64,000 nucleotides of DNA from Chloroflexota bacterium (GTDB taxonomy: Bacteria; Chloroflexota; UBA11872). This document shows, piece by piece, positions 9,890-45,401 of the stretch. Within the stretch, counting starts at the first letter, position 1. Each line of letters begins with the position of its first letter. The notes under the pieces are model-generated. The model did no database searches. It saw nothing but the letters and a program-made list of their open reading frames with translations, and had not been told where the DNA came from. The position numbers and the translations under genes were made by a program. The DNA lies in the NCBI GenBank assembly GCA_022825895.1, contig JAJDVX010000015.1, positions 45,121 to 109,120 of the forward strand, given 5' to 3'.

Positions 9890-11665
9890 GTGCGGTACGT
9901 AGCCGTCCTGGCCCGTCGCGAAGTCCTGTTTGGGGCGTTGGCCGGGTTGCTGGCCGGGGTCGTGTTCGCGCTGGCGATGCAGGCCGAGCAGATGCGCGTG
10001 GAGGTGACCGGGCTGGCCGGGGTGTCGACCTCCGGCGCCGGGCTGGTTGTGCACCTGGTGCTTGCAACGCTGATCGGCGCTGTCGTTGGCATGCAGTACC
10101 GGCACGAGCCCGGGAGCTATGCGGCGCAGATCACGCTGGGCGTCACGTTCGGGCTGCTGGGCTGGATCCTGGGGCCGCTGACGTTTCGACCGCTGGCGGA
10201 AGGGCAGATTCCCGACTGGTCCATCGCCGTGGCGTCGGCCGGGTTTCCCAGCCTGATGGGACACATGCTCTACGGGGCGCTGACCATCGGGGGCCTGTAC
10301 TGGGCCGTGGACCGGTGGGGCGGCGGCGCCGTGCTGGCGCGTCCGAGCGAACGCGCGGCGGATCGCGTGCATCGGATCGTGGTGCTGGGCGGCGGGTTCG
10401 GCGGGATGAGCGCGGCGCAGACGCTGGAGCGGATAACGCGAAAGCGGCGCGACCTGGACGTCACGCTGGTGAGCCAGAGCAATTTCCTGCTGTTTACGCC
10501 GATGCTGGCCGAGGTGGCGTCCAGCGCGCTGGAAGCGCAGCACATCGCGGCGCCGATTCGCGCGGCCTGCCCGTTCACCAACTTCATTCACGGCGACGTC
10601 GAACGGATCGACCGCGAGCAGCGGCAGGTGCTGGTGCATGGGCGGCGCTCGGCGGAGCCGCAGGCGGTGCCCTACGACCACCTGGTGCTGGCGATGGGAT
10701 CGGTGCCGAACTTCTACGGCCTGCCGGGCCTGGCCGAGCACGCGATCACGCTGAAGACACTGGAAGACGCGGTGGGCCTGCGGCACCGGGTGCTGTCGCA
10801 GTTGGAGCGCGCCGACCATGAGACGGACGTGGAGGTTCGACAGCGGCTGCTGACGTTTGTCGTCGCGGGCGGCGGGTTTGCGGGCGCGGAGACGATCGCC
10901 GAACTGTTCGACCTGGTGTCGAGCGTTCGCCGCTACTACCAGCATCTGCGACCGGGTGACGCGCGGTTTGTGCTGGTGCATTCGCGCGACCGCATCCTGC
11001 CGGAACTTAGCGCGGAACTGGGCGCGTACGCGCTGGAGAAGCTAAGCGCGCGGGGGATCGAGTTTCGGCTGGGGCGCCGGGTCGCGGCGGCGGCCGAAGG
11101 GTCGGTGACGCTGGACGACGACACGGAGATCGCCTGCGAGACGTTCGTCTGGACGGCGGGGAACCAGCCGAATCCGCTGCTGGGAACCATGGACTGCGAG
11201 ACGAGCCGGTCCGGCCAGATCGTGGTGGACGCCACGCTAGGGGTGCAGGACAGGCCGGGGCTGTGGGCCGTGGGCGACGGGGCGCAGATTCCGGATCTCA
11301 CCAACGAGGGCCGGCCCTGTCCGCCGACAGCCCAGCACGCGCTGCGCCAGGGTAAGCGGGTGGCCCTGAACATCCTGGCGACGATCGACGGCCGGACGCT
11401 GAAGCCGTTCCGATACCGGGCGACCGGCTCACTGGTGGGGCTCGGGCACCGTACGGCGGCCGCGGAAATCTGGGGTCGCAAGTTCTCGGGGCTGCTGGCC
11501 TGGTTCATGTGGCGAACGATCTACCTCAGCAAGCTGCCGGGCCTGGAACGCAAGTCGCGCGTGGCGCTGGACTGGGCGCTGGACCTGGTGTTTCCACGCG
11601 ACATCGTGCTGACGACGGCGGCCGACGGCCGGTTCGGGTCCGACGACCCGGAGCGCGGGTCATGA
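9890..11665 (+). CDS. type II NADH:quinone oxidoreductase (NDH-2) with N-terminal ~140-aa 4-TM module
   Basis: GTG start. aa ~160-560: RIVVLGGGFGGMSAAQ, FVVAGGGFAGAE, WAVGD typical of NDH-2. aa 1-140 hydrophobic, with GPLT..PL, DWS, FP.LMGHMLYG motifs shared with the downstream gene. Confidence 0.85.
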   Translation: MRYVAVLARREVLFGALAGLLAGVVFALAMQAEQMRVEVTGLAGVSTSGAGLVVHLVLATLIGAVVGMQYRHEPGSYAAQITLGVTFGLLGWILGPLTFRPLAEGQIPDWSIAVASAGFPSLMGHMLYGALTIGGLYWAVDRWGGGAVLARPSERAADRVHRIVVLGGGFGGMSAAQTLERITRKRRDLDVTLVSQSNFLLFTPMLAEVASSALEAQHIAAPIRAACPFTNFIHGDVERIDREQRQVLVHGRRSAEPQAVPYDHLVLAMGSVPNFYGLPGLAEHAITLKTLEDAVGLRHRVLSQLERADHETDVEVRQRLLTFVVAGGGFAGAETIAELFDLVSSVRRYYQHLRPGDARFVLVHSRDRILPELSAELGAYALEKLSARGIEFRLGRRVAAAAEGSVTLDDDTEIACETFVWTAGNQPNPLLGTMDCETSRSGQIVVDATLGVQDRPGLWAVGDGAQIPDLTNEGRPCPPTAQHALRQGKRVALNILATIDGRTLKPFRYRATGSLVGLGHRTAAAEIWGRKFSGLLAWFMWRTIYLSKLPGLERKSRVALDWALDLVFPRDIVLTTAADGRFGSDDPERGS

Positions 11666-16932: not shown

Positions 16933-18290
16933 CCGTCCCGGCGCGCGACCCCGTGCCCGCGGACGCGCTGCTGACCGACCTGTATCAACTGAGCATGATG
17001 CAGGCGTACTGGGAACACGGGCTGACGGAGACGGCGACCTTTGACCTGATCTGCCGCCGGCTGCCGCCGAACCGGAATCTGCTGATCGCCTGCGGGCTGG
17101 AAGCGGCGCTGGAATACCTGGAAGGCGTGGCGGTCACGGCGGCGGATCTGGAGTACCTGGCCTCGCTCAATCGATTCTCGATGGACTTCCTGAACCGGCT
17201 GGAGTGGCTCAGGTTCCAGGGAGAGGTGCGCGCCGTGCCGGAAGGGACGCCGGTGTTTGGCAACGAGCCGATCCTGGAAGTAACAGCATCGCTACCCGAA
17301 GCCCAGATCGTGGAGACCTATCTGCTCAGCACGATCCATCACCAGACGATGGCCGCGTCGGCCGCGTACCGGCTGGCGGCAGCCGCCGAGGGAATCCCGG
17401 TGGTGGACTTTGGCACGCGACACGCGCAAGGGGCCGCAGCCGGCGTGGACACGGCGCGCGCGGCCTATGTCGCGGGCGTGGCCGGCACCTCGAACGTGGC
17501 GGCCGGGCGGCGGTTCGGCGTGCCCGTCAGCGGCACGATGGCGCATAGCTACATCCAGGCGCACGAGCGCGAGTCGGACGCGCTGGCTTCATTTGCGGCC
17601 ACACACCACGGGACCACACTGCTGGTGGACACCTACGACATTCGCCGAGGGGTGGGTCTAGTCATCGACCTGGCGGAGCGACAGGGCGACGAATTTGACG
17701 TGGCGGCTATTCGGATCGACTCAGGCGACCTGGGGGCCAATGCGCGCATGGCGCGGGAGATGCTGGATATGTCGGGCCTGACCGCGGTTCGCATTATCGT
17801 CAGCGGCGATCTGGACGCAGAGAGAATCGCGGCGTTGGCCGAATCCGGTGCGCCGATCGACGGGTATGGCGTGGGCACGGCGCTGGCCGTGTCCACGGAC
17901 GCGCCTTACCTGGATACCGCCTACAAGCTGGCCGCGTATGCGGGGCAGGGTCGAATGAAGCTGGCCGCCTCGAAGCGCACGTGGCCTGGGCGCAAGCAGG
18001 TGTTCCGTCAGATCGACGCCGGCGCTGCCGTGCGGGACGTGCTGGGAACGGTGGATGAAGCGATGGATGGTCGCCCCCTACTCGAAACCGTCATGTCGAA
18101 TGGGCGGCGGGTCGAAGAGACAGGTCGGCCTCTGGAGGCCATTCGCCGGCACGCTGCCGACTCGCTGGCGGAACTGCCGCAATTCGTTCGCGGCCTGGAT
18201 CCCGCCGAGCCTCCGTATCCCGTTATCGTGAGCGACAAGCTTGAACGCGCGGCACGCGAACTCGCGAGCCGACTTCGGGCGGAGGCTTAG
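16929..18290 (+). CDS. pncB: nicotinate phosphoribosyltransferase
   Basis: 453 aa; LTDLYQLSMMQAYWEHG N-terminus and NAPRTase core. Coupled to pncA. Confidence 0.85.
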   Translation: MTVPARDPVPADALLTDLYQLSMMQAYWEHGLTETATFDLICRRLPPNRNLLIACGLEAALEYLEGVAVTAADLEYLASLNRFSMDFLNRLEWLRFQGEVRAVPEGTPVFGNEPILEVTASLPEAQIVETYLLSTIHHQTMAASAAYRLAAAAEGIPVVDFGTRHAQGAAAGVDTARAAYVAGVAGTSNVAAGRRFGVPVSGTMAHSYIQAHERESDALASFAATHHGTTLLVDTYDIRRGVGLVIDLAERQGDEFDVAAIRIDSGDLGANARMAREMLDMSGLTAVRIIVSGDLDAERIAALAESGAPIDGYGVGTALAVSTDAPYLDTAYKLAAYAGQGRMKLAASKRTWPGRKQVFRQIDAGAAVRDVLGTVDEAMDGRPLLETVMSNGRRVEETGRPLEAIRRHAADSLAELPQFVRGLDPAEPPYPVIVSDKLERAARELASRLRAEA

Positions 18291-18811
18291 GCTCCGGCGT
18301 CGCCTTCCTCTGCGGCACCCGGCTGCCGGGCGGCCAGTTCGCGGTCGAGAATCAGCAGGCCGGCGCCATCGTTTCCGGCGATGCGCAGCTGGCTCAGCAG
18401 GGTGCGGAGCGTGTCCTCTTCCTCAGTCTGTTCGTTCACGAACCAGTCCACCAGCGACTTGGCCTGGTAGTCACCGAGTTCGACGGCCTGGGCATACAGG
18501 GCGTTGACCGAGCGCGTCGTGCCCTGTTCCAGGGTCAGCGCCGCGGCGACGACCGACTGTGGATCGCTGTATTCAGTATCGGCCTCGTCCAGTCCGCCCA
18601 GGGTAATCGGTGTGTCGCGGGCCGCCAGGTGATCGTAAATCCGCATGCCGTGGGCCCATTCCTCTTCGCTTTGGGCGCGCATCCAGGCGGCGAAACCCTC
18701 CAAATCCAACGACTCGAAGTAGGCGGCCATGCCCAGATAGACATAGGCCGCGCTGAACTCGTGGTTGATCTGGTCGTTGAGCGCCCTGGCCAGACTTCCA
18801 TCCATGGTCAT
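18287..18811 (-). CDS. ferritin-like iron storage protein (Ftn/bacterial ferritin family)
   Basis: Start re-picked to ATG at 18809-18811 with GGAGGAGG RBS. LNDQINHEFSAAYVYLGMAAYF, EEWAHGMRIYDHL ferroxidase-centre motifs. Confidence 0.8.
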   Translation of the reverse strand: MTMDGSLARALNDQINHEFSAAYVYLGMAAYFESLDLEGFAAWMRAQSEEEWAHGMRIYDHLAARDTPITLGGLDEADTEYSDPQSVVAAALTLEQGTTRSVNALYAQAVELGDYQAKSLVDWFVNEQTEEEDTLRTLLSQLRIAGNDGAGLLILDRELAARQPGAAEEGDAGA

Positions 18812-18903
18812 CGCCGCCTCCTCCGTCTTGCTCTCGATCAAGCCTAGCGCCGCGGGCACTCAGGCTCTCATGGGTTCGACGACATCCGACCCCCGGCGCC
18901 CCG

Positions 18904-21363
18904 TCAACTTCTGGCAAAGCGTCGCAGCCGCAGCGAGTTGCCGACCACGGAAAGGTCGCTGAAGGCCATCGCGGCGGCGGCCAGCATCGGGCTGAGCTGC
19001 ACCCCCCACACCGGAAACAAGACGCCCGCGGCGACCGGAATCAGCGCCACGTTATAGGCGAAGGCCCAGAAGAGGTTCTGGCGGATCGTGCGCATGGTGG
19101 AGCGGCTGAGGCGGATAGCGGTCACCGCGTCGCGCAGATCGCCGCGCACAAGGGTGATGTCGCCGGCTTCCATGGCGATGTCGGTACCAGAACCCATGGC
19201 GATACCCAGGTCAGCCTGGGCCAGCGCGGGCGCGTCGTTGATGCCGTCGCCGACGACGGCCACGCGATGTCCGGCGGCCTGCAATTCCCGGACGATGGCC
19301 GCCTTGTCCCCGGGGCGCACTTCCGCCCGCACCTCGTCCACCCCGACCTGCCGAGCAATGGCCTGGGCTGGCGCGTTGTGGTCGCCGGTGACCATCAGCA
19401 CGCGCAGACCGAGCTGCCGCAATTGGGTAACGACTCCCCGAGCTTCCGGCCGCGGAACGTCGGCTAGCGCCATCAGGCCAGCCAGTTCACCGTCAATGGC
19501 GGCGTATATGGACGAACGGCCTTGCGCGGCCAACTCGGTACCGCGGTCCAGCGCGGCCTCAACCGACACGCCCGCGTCCGCCAGAAGATCCGCCGTACCC
19601 ACCACGACCTGACGGTTTTCGACCACGGCGCGAACGCCGCCACCGGTTACCGACGCGAACCGGTTGGCCGGCGAAAGCTCAATGCCGCGCTCGATCGCGC
19701 CATGCACGATCGCCTGACCGATGGGATGCTCGGAGTCGCGTTCAGCCGAGCCGACCAAGCGCAGGATTTCCGACTCGGGCTCGCCGTTGAGCGGAATGAC
19801 GTCCGTTATCGCGGGACGGCCGCCGGTGATGGTGCCGGTCTTGTCCAGCACCACGGTATCGATGCGCCCGGCCGTCTCCAGCGCTTCCCCGCTACGCACG
19901 AGGACGCCGAGTTCGGCGCCCTTGCCGACGCCAACCATGATGGCCGTGGGCGTGGCAATGCCCAGCGCACAGGGACAGGCAATGATCAGCACCGTGACCA
20001 TGGCAACCAAAGCGTGGGGAAGCCGCGGGTCGGGACCGACTGCCAGCCACACGCCGAGTGTCAGAAGGCTAGTCACGATCACGGCCGGCACAAAGCGGGC
20101 CGCCACCCAGTCGGCCAGCCGCTGCACCGGCGCCTTGGACGTCTGGGCCCGTTCAACCAGGGCGATGATCTGCGCCAGCATCGAGTCCTGGCCGAGGCGG
20201 GTGGGGCGAACGCGCAGGCTGCCCGTTGTGTTGAGCGTGGCGCCGATCACCTCGTCGCCCGGCCCCTTATCCACCGGAATGCTCTCGCCGGTGATCATCG
20301 ATTCGTCCAGAGCGGAGGCACCCTCGAGCACCCGGCCGTCCACGGGAACCTTCTCGCCGGGGCGCACCACGACCACGTCGTCATTTCGTACGTCGTCCAA
20401 CGCGACTTCGAGGATCTGCCCGTCCCGCTCGACGCGAGCCGTCCTGGCCCGGAGGTCCAACAGCCGCTGGATAGCCGCGGAGACTCGAGCCCGGGCGCCC
20501 ATCTCGAAATAGCGGCCAAGCAGAACCAGTCCGATGATGACGGCCGAGGCCTCGTAGTAGTGGACGTCGGCCCCGGCCACTCCGCTCAGCAGCCCCGGCC
20601 ACACCGTGACAATCAGGCTGTAGCCGTACGCGGCGCTGGTTCCCAGGGCAATGAGCGTGTTCATGTCCGTGCTCGCGCGCCGCGCCGCCAGCCAGGCGCC
20701 GCGGTAGAACGACCAGCCGGACCAGAATTGAACTGGCGTGACGAGGACGAGCACTACCCATGGGTTGCCCAGGATCTCGGGCGCCCACGGGATGAACTCC
20801 ATCGCTCCCCACATCGCCAGTGCCCCAACGCCGAGCGCGAAGGCGGCCTGAATCCCCAGCCAGCGACGTTCGCGGCGGCGACGCTCCTCCAGCCCTCCGT
20901 CGGCGGCGGCCGCGCCAGTGGAGGAATCGTTGGGCGCGTCGGATTCGAGCACGTCGAAGCCGACACGCTCCACGGCCGTCCGCAGCACGCCATGCTCGGC
21001 CTGGCCCAGCGCGTGACGTACGAGGGCCTGGCCGGAAGCCAGGTTCACGGATGCGTCAAGCACGCCAGGAACTCCCACAAGGGCGTTCTCCACCTGGCCC
21101 ACGCACGATGCGCAGTGCATGCCCTCGACCTGGAGCGTGCGCTCGGCGGTGGGCACCTCGTAGCCCTCCGCCTGAACGGCGGCGGCGACATCGGCCGCGC
21201 TGAGGTCTCGATCGGCGCGCACGGCGAGCGTTTCGTCCGCCAGATTGACCGACGCCTCAACGACACCAGGCACTTGCCCGACCACCTGCTCGATCCGACC
21301 GACGCAGGCGACGCAGTGCATTCCCGCGACGGGAAGGGTGAACGACTGCTCCGCGTCGGTCAT
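18904..21363 (-). CDS. copA: copper-translocating P1B-type ATPase with two N-terminal HMA domains
   Basis: Two [12 protein letters not shown] / [12 protein letters not shown] metal-binding domains, TM CPC ([12 protein letters not shown]), [13 protein letters not shown]. 819 aa. Confidence 0.9.
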
Positions 21364-21734
21364 GACGTCTCACCGTTTCCTCGCGCGTGCGACGAACCTT
21401 CCCGCACGCTCAATGTGGCGGCCACTCGCTCGATGGCCACGCCGGCCGAAGCCACCCGGCGCAGGTGACCCGTCCCCTTGAACACGTCCATGAGTTCCGC
21501 GATCACCCGCTCGCGCTCGGCCGGATCGTCCGAGGCGATGGCGGTGGTAACACAGGTTCTGAGGTGGCGTTCCAGGACTCCGGCGTTGACTTTCTCGATT
21601 GCGCCCTGGATGGCCAGGGTCTGCTTGAGCACGTCCACGCAGTAGGCATCATCTTCGAGCATCTTCTCGACCGCCCGGGCGTGGCCCTGGATCGACTTCC
21701 AGCGGTTGAGGAGGTTCTGAGTTTCCCGATCCAT
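21360..21734 (-). CDS. csoR: CsoR/RcnR family copper-sensing transcriptional repressor
   Basis: [19 protein letters not shown] core (Cys/His metal ligands). Stop TGA overlaps copA ATG, so csoR-copA form an operon. Confidence 0.85.
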
Positions 21735-34956: not shown

Positions 34957-36093
34957 GTGATAGACGTCCTGAGCGGTCTCTTCGTGGACCATACGCTGCG
35001 CACGGTCGCGCTTGGCTCGGCCACGCTGGGAATCGTCAGCGGTGCCCTTGGAGCCTTCGCCGTGCTCCGCCGACAAGCTCTTCTGGGCGATGCCATGTCC
35101 CACGCGGCGTTGCCCGGAGTGGCCCTGGCGTTTCTGCTTACCGGCAGCCGTGCGCCGCTGGTGCTAATGCTCGGCGCGGCCATTGCCGGTTGGCTGGCAG
35201 CCGCGGCCATTGTCGGAGTCGTGCGCACGTCCCGCGTCAAGGTAGACAGCGCCATGGCCTTAACGCTAAGCGTCTTCTTTGGTGCCGGGCTGGTTGTATT
35301 GACTTTCATCCAGCGTCAGCCCGCCGCTGGCAAGGCCGGGCTGGACAAGTTTCTCTTCGGACAGGCGGCCGCCATGCTTGAAAGCGACGTCATCACCATG
35401 GTGGCCGTGGGCGCTGTCGGACTCTTCGGCCTGCTGGCGCTCTGGAAGGAATTCAAGCTCCTGAGCTTCGACCCCGACTTTGCGGCAACCCTCGGCATGC
35501 CCACGCGCCGGGTGGACATTCTCCTGACCAGCCTCCTTGTGATCGCCATCGTTGTCGGACTCAAGACGGTTGGAGTGGTTCTCATGAGCGCCATGGTGGT
35601 GGCGCCCGGTGCGGCCGCCCGGCAGTGGACGAATCGTCTGGGTGTCATGGTCACCCTCTCGGCGTGTTTTGGAGCTGCCGCAGGTGTGCTGGGAGCACTG
35701 CTTAGCACCACGGCAGAGACGTCCACAGGTCCTACCATCGTGCTTGTTGCGACCGGGCTGGTGGTTGTGTCGCTCTTGTTTGCGCCCGCGCGAGGCTTGG
35801 TGTGGGTACGCATGCGCGCCTGGCGGAGCCGGCGGATGCTGGCCTTGGAAGCTGTCATCGCCGACCTGGCGTCGCTGGCGGCGCAGCACGGATCCAACGC
35901 GACGCATCCACATGACATCGGGGCCCTGAACGCAGTTCGCGGCCGCGCCGTCGTCGAACGCGCCTTGACCGAATTGGCTGCGGACGGGCTGGCTCGGCAG
36001 CACGACACCGGCGGCTGGTCGCTGACGCCCCGCGGACTGGCCGAAGCCGACCGTTTGGCCCGAAGCCGACGCGCGCCAGGAGTTGCCCGTTGA
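34957..36093 (+). CDS. metal ABC transporter permease (ABC-3 family) with C-terminal ~90-aa winged-helix-like extension
   Basis: GTG start. ~280 aa ABC-3 permease core, then ALEAVIADLASLAAQHG...ERALTELAADGLARQHDTGGWSLTPRGLAEADRL. Confidence 0.8.
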   Translation: MIDVLSGLFVDHTLRTVALGSATLGIVSGALGAFAVLRRQALLGDAMSHAALPGVALAFLLTGSRAPLVLMLGAAIAGWLAAAAIVGVVRTSRVKVDSAMALTLSVFFGAGLVVLTFIQRQPAAGKAGLDKFLFGQAAAMLESDVITMVAVGAVGLFGLLALWKEFKLLSFDPDFAATLGMPTRRVDILLTSLLVIAIVVGLKTVGVVLMSAMVVAPGAAARQWTNRLGVMVTLSACFGAAAGVLGALLSTTAETSTGPTIVLVATGLVVVSLLFAPARGLVWVRMRAWRSRRMLALEAVIADLASLAAQHGSNATHPHDIGALNAVRGRAVVERALTELAADGLARQHDTGGWSLTPRGLAEADRLARSRRAPGVAR

Positions 36094-37199
36094 CCTCGGC
36101 CCAGATCGACGTCCTCCTCGTCGCCGTCGTGGTCGCCGCCGCTTGTGCGATACCGGGAACGTTTCTGGTCTTGCGCCGCATGGCCATGATGAGCGACGCC
36201 ATCAGCCACACCGTTCTTCTTGGCATCGTATTGGCGTTCTTCGTCGTCGCTGACCTCGGCTCCCCGATTCTCATTGTGGGCGCTGCTCTGGTTGGCTTGC
36301 TCACCGTCGTTCTGGTCGAAGCCACCAGTCGCACTGGCCTGGTGCGCGAGGACACGGCAATCGGCCTGGTGTTCCCAGCCCTTTTCTCTATTGCCGTGAT
36401 CTTGATATCCAGCCTGGCAGGTGATGTGCACCTGGACAGCGATGCGGTATTGCTCGGCGAGATTGCCTTCGCGCCCTTCAACCGCTTCGCACCCTTTGGC
36501 GTCGATCTGGGACCGGTCGCAATCTGGGTCATGGGCGCCATCCTGCTCATCAACCTTGCATGTACAGCTTTGTTCTTCAAGGAATTGAAGCTGGCTACGT
36601 TTGATCCGGCCCTTGCCGCGGCGCTTGGATTCTCGCCGGCACTCGTCCATTACGGGCTTATGGCGCTAGTCTCGATCACCGCCGTTGGCGCCTTTGATGC
36701 CGTGGGGTCGATCCTGGTCGTGGCGCTCATGGTCGGTCCCCCCGCCGCTGCCTACCTGCTCACCGACCACCTGCCTCGAATGTTGGGACTTAGCGTCCTT
36801 ATCGGCGCGACGTCAGCCGCCGGCGGCTATTGGCTTGCGAGGCTGCTCGACGCCAACATCGCCGGCGCGATGGCCACGGCGGTCGGCATCGCCTTCACAC
36901 TTGTCCTACTGCTCGCGCCACGGCGCGGATTGGTCGCCGCGGCCCGGCGGCGGCGCCGTCAGCGATGGACGTTCGCCCGTCAGATGCTGCTCATTCACCT
37001 CGCCACGCACGAGGGCACGCCGACTGAATCCGACGAGAGCCACCCCGACCACATGCAGCGCCACATGCGCTGGCCCGCCGACTTTTCCGCCCGCGTGATT
37101 CAGACCGCCACCGATCGCGGCCTCGTCGTGCTCGAAGCCGAGCAACTTCGCCTCACCCCCCACGGGCGCGAAGCCGCCAAAGAAGCTGCGGTCCGTTAG
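36090..37199 (+). CDS. metal ABC transporter permease (ABC-3 family) with C-terminal winged-helix-like extension
   Basis: TTG start overlapping upstream stop. Second permease paralog with tail ...ARVIQTATDRGLVVLEAEQLRLTPHGREAAKEA. Confidence 0.8.
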   Translation: MTSAQIDVLLVAVVVAAACAIPGTFLVLRRMAMMSDAISHTVLLGIVLAFFVVADLGSPILIVGAALVGLLTVVLVEATSRTGLVREDTAIGLVFPALFSIAVILISSLAGDVHLDSDAVLLGEIAFAPFNRFAPFGVDLGPVAIWVMGAILLINLACTALFFKELKLATFDPALAAALGFSPALVHYGLMALVSITAVGAFDAVGSILVVALMVGPPAAAYLLTDHLPRMLGLSVLIGATSAAGGYWLARLLDANIAGAMATAVGIAFTLVLLLAPRRGLVAAARRRRRQRWTFARQMLLIHLATHEGTPTESDESHPDHMQRHMRWPADFSARVIQTATDRGLVVLEAEQLRLTPHGREAAKEAAVR

Positions 37200-37226: not shown

Positions 37227-37895
37227 TCATGCCTCATGGGTGAAGACGCTGTCGCTGACCGTCTGGCTCAATGCCACCTCGGCGTCCCCAATCCGCACCA
37301 CCAGCGGCCCGTCGAAGGGTAATCGTCGAACCACACGGGCCCGCGTGCCCGGCACAAGCCGGATCTCCGTCAGGTACTCCAGCACGGCCCGGTCGCGGTC
37401 GCGTACTCGCGCCACCACGAAATCCGTGCCATCGGCAACCCCCGTCAACTGGCGCGCATCGTCGGCTTGTAGCGCGTCCAGCGCCTCATTGGGGATCGAG
37501 TCCCCGTGCGGATCCGTTGTCGGGTCGGAGACCTTGGCGGCGATTCGCCGCTCCATCTCCTCGGAAATCACATGCTCCAGCCGGTCGGCCTCCTCGTGCA
37601 CGTCATTCCAGTCGTAATCCAGGAACTCCACCAGGAACCGTTCGATCAGCCGGTGATGGCGGACCATCTCCAGCGCGTGGCGCTCACCTTCCTCGGTCAG
37701 TTGTGCGCCCTGGTAGCGCCGGTAGTCGACCAACGCCTTCTGTCGCAGGCGTTGCAGCGCTACCGTCACCGCGCCCTGGGTCACGTCCAACTGGCTCGCC
37801 AGTTCCCCTGTCCCCACCCGCCGCTCGTGCCCGCCGGCGTCGTAGAGGGCGCGCAGATAGTCTTGGTCGCTGGCTGAAACGGGCGGGTCGGGCAT
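37227..37895 (-). CDS. DtxR/IdeR/MntR family metal-dependent transcriptional regulator with C-terminal FeoA/SH3-like domain
   Basis: N-terminal wHTH DYLRALYDAGGHERRVGTGELASQLDVTQGAVTVALQRL, metal-binding HHRLIERFL, C-terminal SH3-like domain. Confidence 0.85.
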   Translation of the reverse strand: MPDPPVSASDQDYLRALYDAGGHERRVGTGELASQLDVTQGAVTVALQRLRQKALVDYRRYQGAQLTEEGERHALEMVRHHRLIERFLVEFLDYDWNDVHEEADRLEHVISEEMERRIAAKVSDPTTDPHGDSIPNEALDALQADDARQLTGVADGTDFVVARVRDRDRAVLEYLTEIRLVPGTRARVVRRLPFDGPLVVRIGDAEVALSQTVSDSVFTHEA

Positions 37896-37967
37896 TCAAT
37901 CTTGGCGGCGAGTAGGGCCAGCAACCTAACAGGTTGGGCGCCGGCGCTGACTGGCTAGACTGCCAGC

Positions 37968-38942
37968 GTGCACAGTTTCGACCCCCCCGGGCAGCCCCGC
38001 GCGCCGCGCGCCCCTGCATTCTCACGACGAACCATCCTGGGCGCGCTGGGCCTGGCAACGCCGGCGCTCGCCGGATTGCTCCCCGCCTGCGGATCACCGC
38101 CACCCGATCCCAACATCAGCGTCTTCCTGACGGTCAACGAAATGCTGCCGGGTCCGCATCGCTTCCCCTTCGTGGTGGTTGACGGCGAACGCACGGCGGT
38201 CACCGGTGCGCGGATCCAAGTGCGCTTCCTGCGACTGGTGGGGGAACGCGACGAGTTTCGCTTCGAAGTCCCCGCCAGGGAATACGTCGCCGGCGGCAGC
38301 TACAACCACGTCCATGAAGACGGCCGGGTCCACGTCCACGACCTGGCCCGCTCCTACTACCTCGTCGACGACGCCAACTTCGACGAGGGCCTCTGGCGCG
38401 CCGACCTGGAGGTGCATCCGGCCAACGGCTCGGCCTTCTCCGCGTCTACGGTCTTCCAGGTCGGACAACGCACCGCCACTCCGAGGGTGGGAGACCCGGC
38501 GCCCGGCACCGTCCATGCCACGGTCGACGACGTCGCGGATCTCAACCTCCTGACCACCGCCGACCCACCCCTCTCGGCCCTCTACGGGCATACCGTTGCC
38601 GACGCGCTCGCCGCGAACGAGCCATTCCTTGTCGCCTTTAGCACCCCCGCCTTCTGTACGTCGGCGATGTGCGGACCGGTCACTGCCGTTGTGGGCGACT
38701 TGCACGGCCAGCTGGGCGACCGTGTGCGCTTCATCCACCTCGAGCCGTTCGATCTCAATATCGCGCGTACCGAGGGCCGCCTCGTTTGGGCAGACGTGGC
38801 GCGCGAGTGGAACCTCGAAACCGAACCCTGGGTCTTTGTCGTCGATCCTTCCGGGCGCGTAGCCGCGCGCTTCGAAGGCCTGGTCGGGGCCGCCGAACTT
38901 CGGCCCGCCATCGCCGCCGTGGCTGGACCGCCGCTGCGCTGA
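37968..38942 (+). CDS. Tat-secreted lipoprotein, hypothetical (C-terminal thioredoxin/Sco-like CxxxxC region)
   Basis: GTG start. Twin-arginine signal SRRTILGALGLATPALAGLLPAC (lipobox). C-terminal FLVAFSTPAFCTSAMCGP. Confidence 0.5.
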   Translation: MHSFDPPGQPRAPRAPAFSRRTILGALGLATPALAGLLPACGSPPPDPNISVFLTVNEMLPGPHRFPFVVVDGERTAVTGARIQVRFLRLVGERDEFRFEVPAREYVAGGSYNHVHEDGRVHVHDLARSYYLVDDANFDEGLWRADLEVHPANGSAFSASTVFQVGQRTATPRVGDPAPGTVHATVDDVADLNLLTTADPPLSALYGHTVADALAANEPFLVAFSTPAFCTSAMCGPVTAVVGDLHGQLGDRVRFIHLEPFDLNIARTEGRLVWADVAREWNLETEPWVFVVDPSGRVAARFEGLVGAAELRPAIAAVAGPPLR

Positions 38943-39421
38943 TGCGACGTCTCCTGCGGTTCCTGCCGGCACTGACTCTGCTGGCGGCCACGGCAACGCC
39001 CGTCCTGGCCCACGGCGGCGACCTCGTCTACACCGGCGCCACCGGTCCCTACCAGGTCCGCGCCTTCGCAAACTGGGCCGAAGGCTGGCTCGACTACTCC
39101 GTGGATCTCCGCAACGTCTCCACCGGTGCGCGCATCCCTGGCGCCGAAGTCAAGGTGACCGTCTTCGAGAATGGCGCCGAAATCGCCCAATACACCGCCT
39201 TCGAGTCCGGCGCCGTCTACGAGTTCGTCGAGCCGAGCCCCGAAGAAGTCCACTGGAATCTCGTACTGGACATCTCCGGCCCCCTCGGCCCCGCCAGACT
39301 CACCCACGCCCTTGACCTGGCGCCCACCAACTGGGTCCTGCCCAGCCTCCTGGTCGTCGGCGGCTTCTTCGCCGCCGTCGCCGCCCACACCTGGACCGCC
39401 CGCCGCCGCGCTCGCGCCTAG
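38942..39421 (+). CDS. hypothetical secreted protein with C-terminal TM anchor; mature N-terminus begins with His (CopC/YtkA-like?)
   Basis: In-frame ATG inside ORF 38669..39421, overlapping the upstream stop (TGATG). Signal MRRLLRFLPALTLLAATATPVLA|HGGD; TM anchor LPSLLVVGGFFAAVAAH. Confidence 0.45.
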   Translation: MRRLLRFLPALTLLAATATPVLAHGGDLVYTGATGPYQVRAFANWAEGWLDYSVDLRNVSTGARIPGAEVKVTVFENGAEIAQYTAFESGAVYEFVEPSPEEVHWNLVLDISGPLGPARLTHALDLAPTNWVLPSLLVVGGFFAAVAAHTWTARRRARA

Positions 39422-41694
39422 CTCCGCGCCGCCTCCGGCAACGTCTGGATGAAGTTGACGATGTGCCAGGTGTCCAGTTCGCCGTATCGCTCGCCGAACG
39501 CCGGCATCCCCGTTCCCTCGATCCCGTTGAACACAAACCCGAACAGCGCATCGTCCGGGTGCAGCGGCACGTGGATCACCAGGTCCAGCGGCGGCGGATC
39601 CAGCGTCGCCGCCAATGGACCGTCCCCGCGACCCGCCGGCCCATGACAGCTCACGCACTCGGCTTCATAAAGCTCCCTTCCGGCGCTGACCGAGACATCG
39701 TCCGGCGGTATCGGGTTCACCGCAGACACCGAGACGCCCTGCGGCGGTCCGATAATCAGCAGCCCTGCCCCCAGCAAGATGGCGGCAAAGCCCGCCCCGG
39801 TCCCCGCCTGCCGCACGCGCGTTGCCCATCCCTGGCGCGCCAGCGTCGCCAGCGCCAGCACAAAGCCCATCCCGGCCAGCGCCAACCCCCAGAACCGCAC
39901 CGCGACCGCCGCATCAACCTCCGCCACGCCAATCGCCGTCGGCGACCCGATGTTCAGCCGCACCGGAACTCTGGCGTCGAACGCCCCCGGCTGCCGCACG
40001 ATCGCCAGCACCTGCCACCGGCCCGCCAACGCAAAGGCATCCGTCTCCACCACGAATCTGCCGTCCTCGGTGCGAACCGGCCGCTCAACCGTCGTCCCCA
40101 GGTCGGTATCGAGATAGCGAAGCTGCAACTCCACATCCGCATCCCCGGCCCGTCCGCCGTCCGCCGTCACCACGTCAACTTCCAGCGTGTTCGGACCCGG
40201 CCGCCCCGGAACCACACGCACCCGCACTCTCGAATCGCCGCTGGCCCCCACGCCCTCCACCGCCAGCGGCACGTCCCCGCTGACCTGCCGCGCCGGCTCG
40301 CGCTCCGTCAGGAACCCGACAACCAGCAGCACACTCACGGCCAGCACGATCTCCGCGCCCACCAGCGTCCGCAGCGCCGTCTGCGCCCTCGGTCGCGCCA
40401 CACCCCCAGCCGCCAGCCTCGGCCGGGTCCACCCCAGGTTCGCGCCCCCCAGCGCCAGCAGCGGCGCCACCAGCGCCAGCTTGGCCACCAGCAAAACTCC
40501 GTACTCCGTGCTCCACAGCCGCGCCGGCTCGAGTACCTGTAACCACGCGCTATACGCCCCGGTCACCAGGATCAGGCCCACAGCCACTGTGGCAACCGCC
40601 GAGAAGCGCGCCGCAACCTCGGTGATCTCGGCGGCAACGGAGCCGTTGGGACGCGCCTGGCGCGACTCCCACGCCAGCAACAGCACTACCGGCAATCCGC
40701 CCACCCACGCCCCCACCGCCAGCAGGTGAATCAGGTCGGCCGCCAGCGCCGGCCCAACCTCGCGCAGCGCCGCGGCGTGACTGCCCAGCGAAATCGTCAC
40801 CGCCATCACCACGGCCGCCAGCGCCACCCCGCCGAATGCAACCACGCCCCGCCGCTCGTCCGGCGACGACGAACTGGCCTGGTCGGCCAGCACCAGCGCC
40901 ACCGCGAGCGCCGCGGTCCGCGATTTCCACAAAACACCCCACTGCCCCGCCCCAAACACATCCCCGAACCCCGCCAGCAGCGAGTCGCCGCCCAACACCA
41001 GGATCTGCGTCCCCAGCAGTCCAACTTGCCCCGCCAGGGCCAGCAGCCCTCCGCCCAGCAACAGCAGCGCCGTCCGCCGTTCCACGACCCGACGCCGCTC
41101 AGGCAGGGATCCCCGCCGTTGCATCAGCACCTGCAGCGGCCCGCCGAACAGCACCGCCACGCCCACGAACAGCAACCAGCGCGAAATCGCCGCCGCCGGG
41201 CTCGACTCGATCGAAGCCACCGCCACCACCACGTCCGCCGCCACCGGCTCGCCCACCCCGAACGCAAACGACCCGCGGATCACATGACCGTCAATCACCG
41301 AGAGCGTCCGCCACACCACCACGTACGTGCCGTCCGCCAGGTCACCCACAGGAACCAGCATGGCCGCGTCACTCGTTGGGTCCGCCTCCGTCGGCCCCGT
41401 GGTCACCGGCTGACCGTCGGCGTCCAGCACCTCCAGGTTGCTGTAATCCGGATCGATGGCCTCGCTGAACTCCGCGTACACCACCAGCGGCGCCGGATCC
41501 ACCGCCGTCCCCGGGCTCGGCGACGCCCGCACCAGGTTCGCGTGCGCCCCGGACGGCGCCGCCACCAGCGCCAGCGCCGTCAACGCGGCTAGAAACGCCA
41601 GGGCCAGGCGCCCGCGGCGGAGCCCAGGCCCCCGCCACGGGCCGGGTTCCCTACCCGGCGCCACGCCGACGGAACGCATAGAACGCAAGGCCAA
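39418..41694 (-). CDS. CopC-CopD fusion copper resistance/uptake protein with C-terminal mono-heme cytochrome c domain
   Basis: Signal, then CopC domain (HANLVRASPSPGTAV...GTYVVVWRTLSVIDGHVIRGSFAFGV), ~8 TM CopD domain, YtkA-like periplasmic domain, C-terminal CVSCHG (CxxCH) cytochrome c. Exact start uncertain (41694 or 41679). Confidence 0.8.
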   Translation of the reverse strand: MALRSMRSVGVAPGREPGPWRGPGLRRGRLALAFLAALTALALVAAPSGAHANLVRASPSPGTAVDPAPLVVYAEFSEAIDPDYSNLEVLDADGQPVTTGPTEADPTSDAAMLVPVGDLADGTYVVVWRTLSVIDGHVIRGSFAFGVGEPVAADVVVAVASIESSPAAAISRWLLFVGVAVLFGGPLQVLMQRRGSLPERRRVVERRTALLLLGGGLLALAGQVGLLGTQILVLGGDSLLAGFGDVFGAGQWGVLWKSRTAALAVALVLADQASSSSPDERRGVVAFGGVALAAVVMAVTISLGSHAAALREVGPALAADLIHLLAVGAWVGGLPVVLLLAWESRQARPNGSVAAEITEVAARFSAVATVAVGLILVTGAYSAWLQVLEPARLWSTEYGVLLVAKLALVAPLLALGGANLGWTRPRLAAGGVARPRAQTALRTLVGAEIVLAVSVLLVVGFLTEREPARQVSGDVPLAVEGVGASGDSRVRVRVVPGRPGPNTLEVDVVTADGGRAGDADVELQLRYLDTDLGTTVERPVRTEDGRFVVETDAFALAGRWQVLAIVRQPGAFDARVPVRLNIGSPTAIGVAEVDAAVAVRFWGLALAGMGFVLALATLARQGWATRVRQAGTGAGFAAILLGAGLLIIGPPQGVSVSAVNPIPPDDVSVSAGRELYEAECVSCHGPAGRGDGPLAATLDPPPLDLVIHVPLHPDDALFGFVFNGIEGTGMPAFGERYGELDTWHIVNFIQTLPEAARS

Positions 41695-43084
41695 CGCCAG
41701 TCACAAGTCCCAGTCCGCCAATCACCAGCCCGGCCACCGCAATCGTCAGGGCCGTCGCCGAAGCGTCCGACGCCTCCCGCGCCTGCTGCTGCGCCGCCGT
41801 GGCCACCCCCGCGATCTCGCGCGCGCTCGGCACCGGCCGCGGGAACTGCGCCACCGTGGCCGACCGCACGTCGTCGAACGTCCCGGGACCCGAAGTAAAT
41901 GTCTCGTCAACCGGCAGCCCGTCGATCGTGCCCACAAACCGGAACCGGTACGGCCCAGGCGCCGTCGGGATGAACGGCGCCACGTAGCCTCCGTCCTCGC
42001 CGCGCAGCGGCGTCAGCGCCATCTGCCGGGCGATGCCCGACGCCGACATGTCCGCCGCCAGGTGCGTCACCTCCACCACCAGGCTGTTCGCCAGGCCGTT
42101 GATGCCAACTTGCGCCTGCTGGCCGGCGTCCATCTGCATGCCGCCGGACCCACCGCCGTCCGGGATGTGAATCGTCTCTAACGCCTCGATTGTCTCGCCG
42201 CCATACGCGTACTCCTCGTGCATGTTGGTATTCAGCGTCACCCGCACTTCGTTCATGCCCGGCGCCAGCTTGCCCAGGTGCAGGTACGGACTGTAGATCC
42301 GCCCCAGCCGCACCCCATTCACGTAGAGGTGCGGATGCCCTTCGCCCGCCACGTTCGGAGCATTCACCTTCGCCGGGGCAAGCGTGAATCCCTGCGGCGT
42401 CACCTTCAGGTTCGCCCCGCCCAGCGGATCCGGCTCCAGGCTGATCGCGACTCTCATCCCGGCGGGCGCCTCCACGTGGCCAACCTCTTCCGGCGCCGGC
42501 GGCATCGCCGGAACGTTGATCGTGGTCGCCGCCTGCACCGGCTGCCCGTCCACCACGTATTCGCTGTGGCCATTCGTCTGCAGTGTCACCCGGATCTCAC
42601 GGTCCCCGGGTGCAACGCCCTTCAGGTGGAACCACTCGCCGTAGGCTCGGCCCACCTTCTCGCCGTCCACGTAAACGTGCGCGTGCCCCTCGCCGTGCAC
42701 GTCCGCCTGATTCACCCGCTCCGGCGCGAACACAAAGCCGGTGGGGATGATGTGCACGTTGATTCCATCGATCGGATCGACCTCCGCCGTCACCTCCACT
42801 GCCATCCCCGACGTCTCCACCGTTCCACCGTGCTCGTGACCGCCGTCCGCGGCCTGGCCCGAACCCTGGTGATCGTCGCCCGCCCGCGTCACCGACAGGT
42901 ACACCCCATTCGGCTGCCCCTCATACGCCGGCTCCACCAGGAACCCGACGTCAAAGGTGAAGCCATGAACCTCACGTCCCTCGTGCGCCCACACCACGCT
43001 CGCCGCAGCCACTAGCCCGACCGCGGCAAGCGCCAACGCCGGCAGGCTGTGCCTCAAGCGCGGCCGGCGATTCCAGACTCGCAT
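41651..43084 (-). CDS. secreted His-rich protein with internal tandem-duplicated ~90-aa domain and C-terminal TM anchor (putative copper-binding)
   Basis: Start re-picked to MRVWNRRPRL (ATG 43082-43084, GAGG RBS). Repeats DPIDGINVHIIPTGFVFAPERVNQADVHGEGHAHVYVDG... and DPLGGANLKVTPQGFTLAPAKVNAPNVAGEGHPHLYVNG... Confidence 0.55.
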   Translation of the reverse strand: MRVWNRRPRLRHSLPALALAAVGLVAAASVVWAHEGREVHGFTFDVGFLVEPAYEGQPNGVYLSVTRAGDDHQGSGQAADGGHEHGGTVETSGMAVEVTAEVDPIDGINVHIIPTGFVFAPERVNQADVHGEGHAHVYVDGEKVGRAYGEWFHLKGVAPGDREIRVTLQTNGHSEYVVDGQPVQAATTINVPAMPPAPEEVGHVEAPAGMRVAISLEPDPLGGANLKVTPQGFTLAPAKVNAPNVAGEGHPHLYVNGVRLGRIYSPYLHLGKLAPGMNEVRVTLNTNMHEEYAYGGETIEALETIHIPDGGGSGGMQMDAGQQAQVGINGLANSLVVEVTHLAADMSASGIARQMALTPLRGEDGGYVAPFIPTAPGPYRFRFVGTIDGLPVDETFTSGPGTFDDVRSATVAQFPRPVPSAREIAGVATAAQQQAREASDASATALTIAVAGLVIGGLGLVTGVGLAFYAFRRRGAG

Positions 43085-43185
43085 CAACAAACCTCGCAGT
43101 TTCGGCGCATCCCCGCACGACACTTCTCGTCCCTACGGGATTCGCCCATTTGGTCCGCGCACCTGCGTGCGCGGCTGGGAGCCAT

Positions 43186-43545
43186 CTACTGCAAGGCCAA
43201 CCTGGGCGGCGGCCGCGGCGTCCCAATAGTCATGCGGCATGCCCGCCCAACATCCAATCGAACACGCTCGAACAGGCACACGACCAGCACAACGGCCAGT
43301 AATGCCGGCATCACCCCCACCGGAAACGGCGACGACTGCTCCGGAAACTCACCCGTCGTGTCAGCCGCTCCTGCCCCATCCGCCTCCGGCAATGTCCACG
43401 GCAAGTGAATGTGATCGTGCCCCTCATGCCCGTGCGGCGTAACCACCCCAAGCATCGGCGCCGCACTCGTCACCAAAGACGGCGCCAGCAAGGCCGCCAC
43501 GGCCAGAACCAGCACGGCAGCCGCCACAACTCGCCTGAACCTCAT
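43186..43545 (-). CDS. small secreted/membrane-anchored His-rich protein
   Basis: Signal MRFRRVVAAAVLVLAVAALLA, then HGHEGHDHIHLP, C-terminal TM helix. Sits in the copper cluster. Confidence 0.4.
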   Translation of the reverse strand: MRFRRVVAAAVLVLAVAALLAPSLVTSAAPMLGVVTPHGHEGHDHIHLPWTLPEADGAGAADTTGEFPEQSSPFPVGVMPALLAVVLVVCLFERVRLDVGRACRMTIGTPRPPPRLALQ

Positions 43546-44590: not shown

Positions 44591-45253
44591 CTAGTAGTAG
44601 GCCCTCGTCTTATTCTTAAAGACATCAATCTGACTGAGCACGGCCGGACTAACCAGATCAAAGAATCCTGACTTTCCTCGCTCATACTTGCGAAATACTG
44701 CCCAGCATATGTAGTCGGCTACTTGAAGACCGTAGTGAGCACGGGAATCGTGATGCACGATGTGGTACCGCAGACGATTGGGAATTCTCCTGGACAGTGT
44801 GTGCCGCACCGACTTCTCGAGTGCTTCCCGCCGTCTCCGGTAAGGGACAGTATCGGTAATAACGATTACTTCTTTGGCCTCGGACTTCGACTCTCTCAAG
44901 ACTACGCGTCGGAGCAGGGAACCGAGCATCTCCGCGTAGAACCTCCCGTCAGGTGTCAGAGAAGGTTCGGTTTTGCGTTTCTCTACAATCAACGCATCAA
45001 TACTGAAGTGATCAAGGTGGGATCCGATGATGTCAAAGACCCTGCCACGAACATGTCGGTTGTCATGAGCGCAGTGGAAGTACTCGGTCGCTAGGCCATA
45101 CTCCAGGCAGTCGTACTTATACGCATCCAGCGCCTCATACATCCGAAACGGCCGCTCCATGCTCACGCTCGTCAGCACGAAATAGCGAGTCCCGCGCGCG
45201 CTGAAATCAAGGTTCCCCGACTCGTCCAGGAATATGTACACGCAGTCGCTCAC
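44591..45253 (-). CDS. DUF3800 family protein
   Basis: GTG start at 45251-45253 (ORF track extends to 45358). CVYIFLDESGN N-terminus and GLQVADYICWAV C-terminal motif typical of DUF3800. GC ~52%. Confidence 0.65.
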   Translation of the reverse strand: MSDCVYIFLDESGNLDFSARGTRYFVLTSVSMERPFRMYEALDAYKYDCLEYGLATEYFHCAHDNRHVRGRVFDIIGSHLDHFSIDALIVEKRKTEPSLTPDGRFYAEMLGSLLRRVVLRESKSEAKEVIVITDTVPYRRRREALEKSVRHTLSRRIPNRLRYHIVHHDSRAHYGLQVADYICWAVFRKYERGKSGFFDLVSPAVLSQIDVFKNKTRAYY

Positions 45254-45401
45254 CGGCGGCCCAGGCCCTTTCCTCGTAGTCGCCCCACTGGACAACACAT
45301 CCCGACGTTTCGCCGGAGCCCTGGGATTCCGCGCCACGCGCGCGGAGTCCCACGGCACCCTGCGTACCCGCCCGGCGGCTCAAGACCGCGATCCGCGTAT
45401 C

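Follow-up and report, generated by a model that had tools for sequence, protein, structure and literature searches.

A single gene in a 64,000-nucleotide stretch of DNA from a Chloroflexota bacterium (contig JAJDVX010000015.1 of assembly GCA_022825895.1, positions 45,121 to 109,120 of the forward strand; hereafter the window, with positions counted from its first letter) encodes a copper-transport fusion protein that ends in a cytochrome. Its predicted parts are, in order, a signal peptide, a beta-sandwich CopC domain, eight CopD helices, a second beta-sandwich, two further helices and an alpha-helical C-terminal domain which, as judged from sequence and model, is a genuine c-type cytochrome of class I, similar to cytochrome c552. 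We suggest, with a probability of about 0.45, that the fusion is a copper acquisition protein of the YcnJ type with a built-in electron-transfer module, in which the haem would reduce Cu(II) bound to CopC for import or hand-off.

The open reading frame (ORF) is uninterrupted and comprises 758 amino acids (aa) when counted from a TTG start, with its stop codon at 39418-39420. The ATG at 41679 (Met6, five codons past the TTG), which is the start used in the gene calls of close homologues and gives a product of 752-753 aa, appears to be the likelier start; a lookup of the exact window protein gave no match, and the context was taken from homologues 91-92% identical to it. This ATG overlaps the stop of an upstream gene for a 490-aa protein (41651-41653) by 29 nucleotides, and short start/stop overlaps are typical of co-translated operon genes. 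An earlier sequence-only reading had described one 758-aa protein at 39418-41694 and had divided it into four parts, namely an N-terminal CopC domain, a polytopic CopD domain, a YtkA-like domain and a terminal CxxCH haem module. The single ORF agrees with this, and all peptides quoted in that reading occur in the translation exactly as given; the strand, which is minus, has to be added. The four domains stand as well, but the count of parts does not, because two transmembrane (TM) helices at about residues 595-650 had been overlooked and there are five.

The Pfam CopC family matches residues 51-147 (E 3e-18) and His51 is the predicted first mature residue, in keeping with a CopC domain that begins with His directly after the signal peptide. 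In an alignment of 94 homologues, which we used for residue conservation and for an AlphaFold2 (AF2) model, Ala50 and His51 at the predicted cleavage site (SGA-H) are both near-invariant, and the brace residues H51, E78, D135 and H137 are kept in 92-94 of the 94 sequences. These four residues align with H1, E27, D83 and H85 of Pseudomonas fluorescens CopC, and H51 also aligns with the residue at the start of the YcnJ CopC construct that was crystallised (9c14); the fold of the modelled domain matches this structure with a TM-score of 0.92. The domain contains a single Met and is therefore predicted to have a Cu(II) brace without a Met-rich Cu(I) site.

The polytopic CopD domain is likewise recovered, with matches to Pfam (residues 360-462, E 4e-22) and to NCBIfam CopD (residues 168-467) and with eight helices. 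Two of its histidines, H306 (94/94 homologues) and H323 (93/94), lie 17 residues apart and are placed by the predicted topology in an outer loop and in the outer half of the fifth TM helix; D320, W330, K405 and E448 are further conserved residues. Substitution H295A abolishes the function of YcnJ, and H135 and H154 of YebZ are situated on the periplasmic side, occur in 99% of eight-helix CopDs and are needed for uptake (PMC11923076). We liken H306 and H323 to these residues by their number and outer-face placement, not by alignment.

The domain that follows CopD is modelled as all-beta (residues 479-582, predicted local distance difference test score (pLDDT) 75-87), so that the YtkA-like domain of the earlier reading stands as a predicted extracytoplasmic beta-sandwich. 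The YtkA label itself comes from a sub-threshold hidden Markov model (HMM) match (PF13115, residues 494-562, E 0.017, a score of 16.2 bits where the cutoff is 25.9); the sandwich domains of homologues match YtkA/FixH at 2e-5 to 1e-4, and PF13115 appears in their precomputed domain lists. This sandwich contains no His, Met or Cys at all and is therefore unlikely to bind copper itself.

The AF2 model as a whole has a mean pLDDT of 82.8 and a predicted TM-score of 0.73, and its layout agrees with that from a hydropathy scan. With the two additional helices at residues 595-618 and 625-647, the number of helices after the signal peptide is ten, an even number. Lys and Arg are concentrated in loop L1 (7 in 19 residues), loop L7 (5 in 24) and the loop between helices 9 and 10 (3 in 11), and the Arg-rich loops coincide exactly with those predicted to be cytoplasmic. 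CopC, the sandwich and the cytochrome are thus all predicted to lie on the outer face of the cytoplasmic membrane, the haem domain being there again because the two extra helices return the chain to that side. The outer face is also where c-type haem is attached.

Both the domain scan and the fold comparison back a genuine cytochrome c at the C terminus, where the sequence-only reading had seen a haem-binding module and had raised the prospect of a fortuitous CxxCH. Cytochrome_CBB3 (residues 669-749, E 4e-11) and Cytochrom_C (E 8e-8) match with a joint span of 669-752, both above their gathering cutoffs, and C680, C683, H684 and M730 are invariant in all 73 cytochrome-bearing homologues. The whole protein has only two cysteines, and because both lie within CVSCH this motif is not fortuitous. 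Of the proteins with a solved structure, Thioalkalivibrio paradoxus cytochrome c552 is the nearest to this domain (phmmer E 2e-20; structures 7o9u and 9vr0), and the two share the NPIPPD lead-in, the CxxCH, an HxPxH pair and the distal Met in MP(A/G)F. In a Foldseek comparison the modelled domain superposes on 9vr0 with a root-mean-square deviation of 1.2 Å, a TM-score of 0.79 and 47% identity. Seven of the eight histidines in the fusion protein are at conserved positions, namely those of the CopC site, the CopD site, the haem ligand and the pair H708/H712.

This pair (HVPLH within DLxxHVPLHPD, at 39559-39573 on the minus strand) is kept in 71 of the 73 cytochrome-bearing homologues, and T. 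paradoxus c552 has HAPHH. H708 and H712 are not among the usual class I haem ligands; they may touch one of the haem propionates or make up a metal site next to the haem.

T. paradoxus c552 is an unusually solvent-exposed monohaem carrier with a midpoint potential of about +160 mV, and it takes electrons from the trinuclear copper centre of thiocyanate dehydrogenase (PMC9456337); its gene sits in a cluster that also holds copCD (PMC5328954). It is a soluble periplasmic protein with His-rich disordered tails, whereas the Chloroflexota domain is tethered to CopCD through two helices, and there is no thiocyanate dehydrogenase gene among the annotated genes of the window. From the same organism comes a crystal structure in which CopC is in complex with a flavocytochrome c (5n1t), so that contacts between a cytochrome and CopC have a precedent.

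The same architecture was found repeatedly in a search for orthologs. Among the best 120 relatives after clustering at 90%, 81 share the Pfam set and have a single CxxCH in the corresponding position, at identities from 92% down to about 30%. In a scan of one genome per species with a profile built on a 20-sequence alignment, at least 563 species genomes carry a relative, and most of the best 80 match over approximately residues 50-752, which speaks against the frameshift or stop between modules that the earlier reading had allowed for. The carriers belong to Dehalococcoidia (including SAR202 and Tepidiforma), Anaerolineae, Chloroflexia and Thermomicrobiales; three are contigs of metagenome-assembled genomes labelled as other groups, and the one protein of these that was checked, from a 'Proteobacteria' assembly, has the identical architecture. 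On this distribution of sequences we conclude that the fusion is under long-term selection. Public annotations of the relatives read only 'CopD family protein' or 'copper transport protein'.

The cytochrome domain by itself matched 13,652 proteins at E <= 1e-3 in an exhaustive HMMER search. The best 150 of these include 42 full four-part proteins, about 33 N-terminally shortened fragments that still have CopD and/or the sandwich and 19 cytochrome-only sequences, and the remainder are multihaem proteins that score highly through repetition. About 76 of the 95 single-haem matches within this set have CopD and/or the sandwich upstream. We considered whether three 'stand-alone' cytochromes represent an independent family; all three directly follow CopC/CopD ORFs and look like frameshift splits, and two of them lie on long-read contigs of 5x and 7x coverage on which the adjoining CopC/CopD ORFs are broken. 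Because most single-haem matches carry CopD or the sandwich and the stand-alone copies adjoin CopC/CopD ORFs, the cytochrome subfamily appears to be essentially dedicated to CopCD.

A 327-aa relative (P0260, L089 6001-6984) was also considered as a minimal fusion of CopC, two TM helices and cytochrome c. It has lost D-x-H and its CopD is gone, and it is probably a decaying gene with an intact cytochrome at the syntenic position of the full-length gene, so that we do not count it as evidence. In some relatives (P0094 and P0096) the cytochrome is replaced by a PCuAC domain, a Cu(I) chaperone. Relatives of 900-1090 aa have long, unrelated C-terminal tails, which do not contain the thioredoxin-like protein encoded next to the fusion gene in the window.

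The earlier reading noted that CopCD fusions of the YcnJ type are known, and CopC-CopD-YtkA is indeed the well-studied architecture of YcnJ. Bacillus subtilis YcnJ and Escherichia coli YobA/YebZ share with the Chloroflexota protein the order of a CopC with a Cu(II) brace, an eight-helix CopD with two outer-face histidines and a C-terminal outer beta-sandwich, and the ycnJ locus also has an adjoining gene for an N-terminal-His protein (YcnI in Bacillus). The Chloroflexota protein differs from YcnJ and YebZ by the addition of two TM helices and a cytochrome c, and from YcnJ also by a sandwich devoid of His, Met and Cys and by an adjacent regulator of the DtxR type instead of YcnK.

A haem domain on CopD is not a new idea, given that proteobacterial CopDs, that of Methylosinus trichosporium OB3b among them, have been reported to carry a fused cytochrome cbb3 domain together with one that is Sco1/thioredoxin-like (Commun Biol 2025, PMC11923076). 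By their published description, these proteins resemble ours in joining CopD and a Cytochrome_CBB3-family domain in one chain. The Chloroflexota protein, however, ends six residues past its cytochrome domain and has no Sco or thioredoxin domain, the thioredoxin-like protein being encoded next door instead of fused, and it has CopC and the sandwich. In the literature that we covered, which is incomplete, we found no description of the Chloroflexota form with CopC, CopD, sandwich, two TM helices and c552-like domain, of its cytochrome subfamily or of its partner gene, nor any experiment on a CopD-cytochrome fusion. The four-part Chloroflexota family thus appears to be undescribed.

If the fusion is a YcnJ-type acquisition protein with its own electron-transfer module, the haem might take electrons from the respiratory chain, for instance from a bc-type complex, alternative complex III or a soluble carrier, and might hand a single electron on to Cu(II) that is bound in CopC or in the N-terminal-His partner encoded upstream. 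The resulting Cu(I), which the brace would hold poorly, could then leave to the histidine site of CopD for import or, by an alternative route, to chaperones on the outer face, which supply haem-copper oxidases and further cuproenzymes with copper. The fusion would in this way supply a local cupric reductase of the kind that has not been identified for YcnJ or YebZ. Work on YcnJ knows of no reductase for that protein and considers a local one to be needed for the loading of respiratory oxidases, and the oxidation state imported by YebZ is left unassigned by the authors of the YebZ study (PMC11923076). Reduction of copper fits the topology, the Cu(II)-only CopC, the kinship to c552 and the want of a known YcnJ reductase, and the PCuAC Cu(I)-chaperone domain that replaces the cytochrome in some relatives points the same way.

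Two functional analogies can be drawn. Cellobiose dehydrogenase uses a tethered one-electron cytochrome to reduce Cu(II) in the N-terminal His brace of lytic polysaccharide monooxygenase; it differs in being a fungal, secreted enzyme with haem b that serves catalysis instead of metal release or transport. The cupric reductase CcoG of Rhodobacter capsulatus, which acts in cbb3 oxidase assembly, would have the same job as that proposed here, namely membrane-bound, local conversion of Cu(II) to Cu(I). CcoG has iron-sulphur clusters and acts on the cytoplasmic side. The likeness is one of function: no such family appeared in the Pfam and NCBIfam scans of the fusion, which has just two cysteines.

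Several considerations weigh against reduction of CopC-bound copper. The characterised relative c552 accepts electrons from Cu(I), which is the opposite direction. For a tight Cu(II) brace one would expect a low potential, except where Cu(I) capture is coupled to the reduction. The B. subtilis and E. coli homologues function without a fused cytochrome, and the Chloroflexota cluster adjoins genes for a DtxR-type regulator and an Mn/Zn transporter rather than oxidase-assembly genes; no cytochrome c maturation or oxidase genes occur within the 64-kb window.

Bacterial copper import is far less understood than export, and a natural fusion of this kind is a 'Rosetta stone' in which a haem that carries single electrons stands next to a CopC with a site for Cu(II) only and to the entry site of CopD. 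The fusion is kept across an entire phylum, one that abounds in oceans, sponges, soils and groundwater, and it draws attention to an unannotated partner family, that of the 490-aa protein. The fusion is a natural candidate for the reductase missing from bacterial copper import and offers a clean handle on an open question, if not one that would startle specialists; the idea is directly testable with two small soluble domains, CopC and the cytochrome. A further-reaching version, which we put forward more tentatively, sees in the haem domain the first cupric reductase dedicated to CopC/CopD import, acting by reductive release from the His-brace, with either H708/H712 or H306/H323 of CopD taking the Cu(I), and in the N-terminal-His partner a new class of extracellular Cu(II) collector that would feed the system. 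If true, reductive release would settle which oxidation state CopD transports.

Alternatively, the cytochrome might serve a relay for cuproenzyme assembly, either by docking the transporter to a haem-copper oxidase or other acceptor or by feeding electrons to the lipoprotein with a Cx4C motif encoded nearby or to a chaperone of the Sco or PCuAC type. Copper and thiols would then be kept reduced during CuA/CuB loading without any action on CopC-bound copper for import. The contribution of YcnJ's YtkA domain to CuA assembly, the proteobacterial CopDs described above, the relatives fused to PCuAC and the adjoining gene for a thioredoxin-like lipoprotein, which is conserved in closer relatives, are all consistent with such a role. 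Nevertheless, this gene is present in only 9 of the 80 species loci used for neighbourhood counts, no oxidase genes lie nearby, the sandwich offers no His, Met or Cys for copper, and a one-electron haem would be unusual as a disulfide reductant, so that we regard a relay as unlikely.

Somewhat less probable again is that the protein detoxifies copper as a cuprous oxidase, with the haem taking an electron from toxic periplasmic Cu(I), the CopC brace capturing the Cu(II) and the electron passing on to a terminal oxidase. The direction of transfer in c552, the nearest characterised cytochrome and an electron acceptor from copper, the presence of a Cu(II) site only in CopC and the multicopper oxidase gene beside the cluster in some relatives would suit this. 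However, CopC and CopD without CopA and CopB are tied to uptake and not to resistance, a separate CsoR-CopA efflux operon that does not include the fusion gene lies 18 kb away, and a one-electron haem without a catalytic copper site would make a poor oxidase.

It is improbable that the haem is a redox or oxygen sensor whose state reports on the respiratory chain and gates transport by CopD without any chemistry on copper. The haem domain is tethered by its own helix pair and packed beside CopD in the membrane, a layout seen in sensor-transducer proteins, yet class I cytochromes with His/Met ligation and an exposed haem are electron carriers, as is c552, and the Pfam and NCBIfam scans yielded no signalling domain. 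An artefact, whether a chance CxxCH or the joining of two genes through assembly or frameshift, has a negligible probability: the few public assemblies that show the cytochrome as a separate short ORF include, in two cases of three, the low-coverage contigs with broken neighbours mentioned above, and against them stand strong HMM, sequence and fold evidence, invariant ligands and the same single ORF in most of the best 80 species genomes.

Table 1. Positions in the window of the fusion gene, its parts and the neighbouring genes, with the evidence for each.
Feature	Position	Strand	Evidence
Whole gene, fusion of CopC, CopD, beta-sandwich, two TM helices and cytochrome c	39418..41694	minus	ORF list, Pfam, NCBIfam, homologue gene calls
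N-terminal region and signal peptide (residues 1-50; hydrophobic core 30-48; predicted cleavage after SGA, His51 first)	41545..41694	minus	hydropathy, alignment
CopC domain (residues 51-147) with predicted Cu(II) His-brace H51/E78/D135/H137	41254..41544	minus	Pfam, fold match, alignment
CopD membrane domain (residues 168-467), eight TM helices	40294..41193	minus	Pfam, NCBIfam, hydropathy, AF2
YtkA/FixH-like beta-sandwich (residues 475-590), predicted extracytoplasmic	39925..40272	minus	weak YtkA HMM, AF2, homologue matches
Two additional TM helices (residues 595-650) with Arg-rich loop ARQGWATRVRQ, predicted cytoplasmic	39745..39912	minus	hydropathy, AF2
Class I c-type cytochrome domain (residues 658-758): NPxPP lead-in, CVSCH, H708/H712, distal Met730	39421..39723	minus	Pfam, alignment, fold
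CVSCH haem-attachment motif (C680, C683, H684)	39643..39657	minus	alignment
490-aa membrane-anchored protein, directly upstream of and overlapping the fusion gene	41651..43123	minus	ORF list, locus comparison, AF2
119-aa His-rich (HGHEGHDHIH) membrane protein, head of the same-strand gene string	43186..43545	minus	locus comparison
159-aa convergent protein with signal peptide (LA-HGGDL), beta-rich body and C-terminal TM helix	38942..39421	plus	locus comparison
324-aa predicted lipoprotein of the Tat (twin-arginine translocation) type, C-terminal thioredoxin-like domain	37968..38942	plus	weak Thioredoxin_2 match
DtxR/MntR-family metalloregulator, divergent from the thioredoxin-like gene	37227..37895	minus	Pfam; position kept in relatives

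The fusion gene is the last of a minus-strand string in which it is preceded by the 119-aa and 490-aa genes, and past the DtxR-family regulator lie genes of an Mn/Zn-type ATP-binding cassette (ABC) transporter (Table 1). The same gene set was found at homologous loci of 91% and 47% identity. In the 80 species loci, the gene for the 490-aa protein stands directly upstream of the fusion in 49, and the other partner genes occur in closer relatives only, in 6-9 loci each.

Behind its signal peptide the 490-aa protein has a mature N-terminal His (His47, in 61 of 68 sequences), and it further has a His-rich disordered linker, two beta-sandwich repeats bearing GEGH(A/P)H and a TM helix at its C terminus; some of its homologues have a cupredoxin insert (PF13473). 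It matches no Pfam family above threshold, YcnI/DUF1775 included, and has no solved relative, and its AF2 model gave generic Ig-like fold matches only. Homology to YcnI, which we considered, is therefore not established; by position and chemistry the protein nevertheless resembles YcnI in its role beside YcnJ, and we propose it as a candidate for a new extracellular copper-binding partner.

The smaller neighbours are less widespread. The 159-aa protein, which also has a mature N-terminal His and has no Pfam or PDB match, is kept in close relatives and at the locus of 47% identity. The 119-aa His-rich protein is conserved at six close loci, with a weak match in L002, and the 324-aa lipoprotein has a conserved Cx4C (FCTSAMCGP), a weak match to thioredoxin-like domains and a further homologue at a locus of 36% identity (L004).

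At three loci of 47-54% identity (L002 14617-17091, L006 7211-9636 and L013 13545-15979), the DtxR gene is followed by genes for a two-domain multicopper oxidase and a 406-aa polytopic membrane protein, and the window has the Mn/Zn ABC transporter where those loci have the multicopper oxidase pair. Both ABC-3 permeases of this transporter region (34957-37199, plus strand) have soluble C-terminal extensions of approximately 80-90 aa past the membrane domain. The 72-bp divergent promoter of the DtxR-type and thioredoxin-like genes contains a perfect palindrome that resembles a DtxR box, CAACCTAACAGGTTG, at 37922-37936. AACCT-N3-AGGTT occurs at the same spot in four close relatives only (L009, L011, L012 and L014), and the palindrome may perhaps be an operator.

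Elsewhere in the window, a copper-efflux operon occupies 18287-21734 on the minus strand and comprises genes for a CsoR-type repressor (21360-21734), a P1B ATPase with two HMA domains (18904-21363) and a ferritin/Dps-like protein (18287-18859). It lies 18 kb from the cluster of the CopCD-cytochrome fusion, which is not part of the operon, and uptake-type and efflux-type copper genes are therefore kept apart. A DUF3800 gene at 44591-45358 on the minus strand, between a methyltransferase gene and the next gene, is absent from the syntenic locus of 91% identity (L001) and is likely to be a small insertion. Finally, a gene for a type II NADH dehydrogenase (NDH-2) is found at 9890-11665 on the plus strand; NDH-2 is named as copper-dependent in E. 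coli by the paper on the AZY operon, whose references include work on a putative Cu(I) site (PMC8689200).

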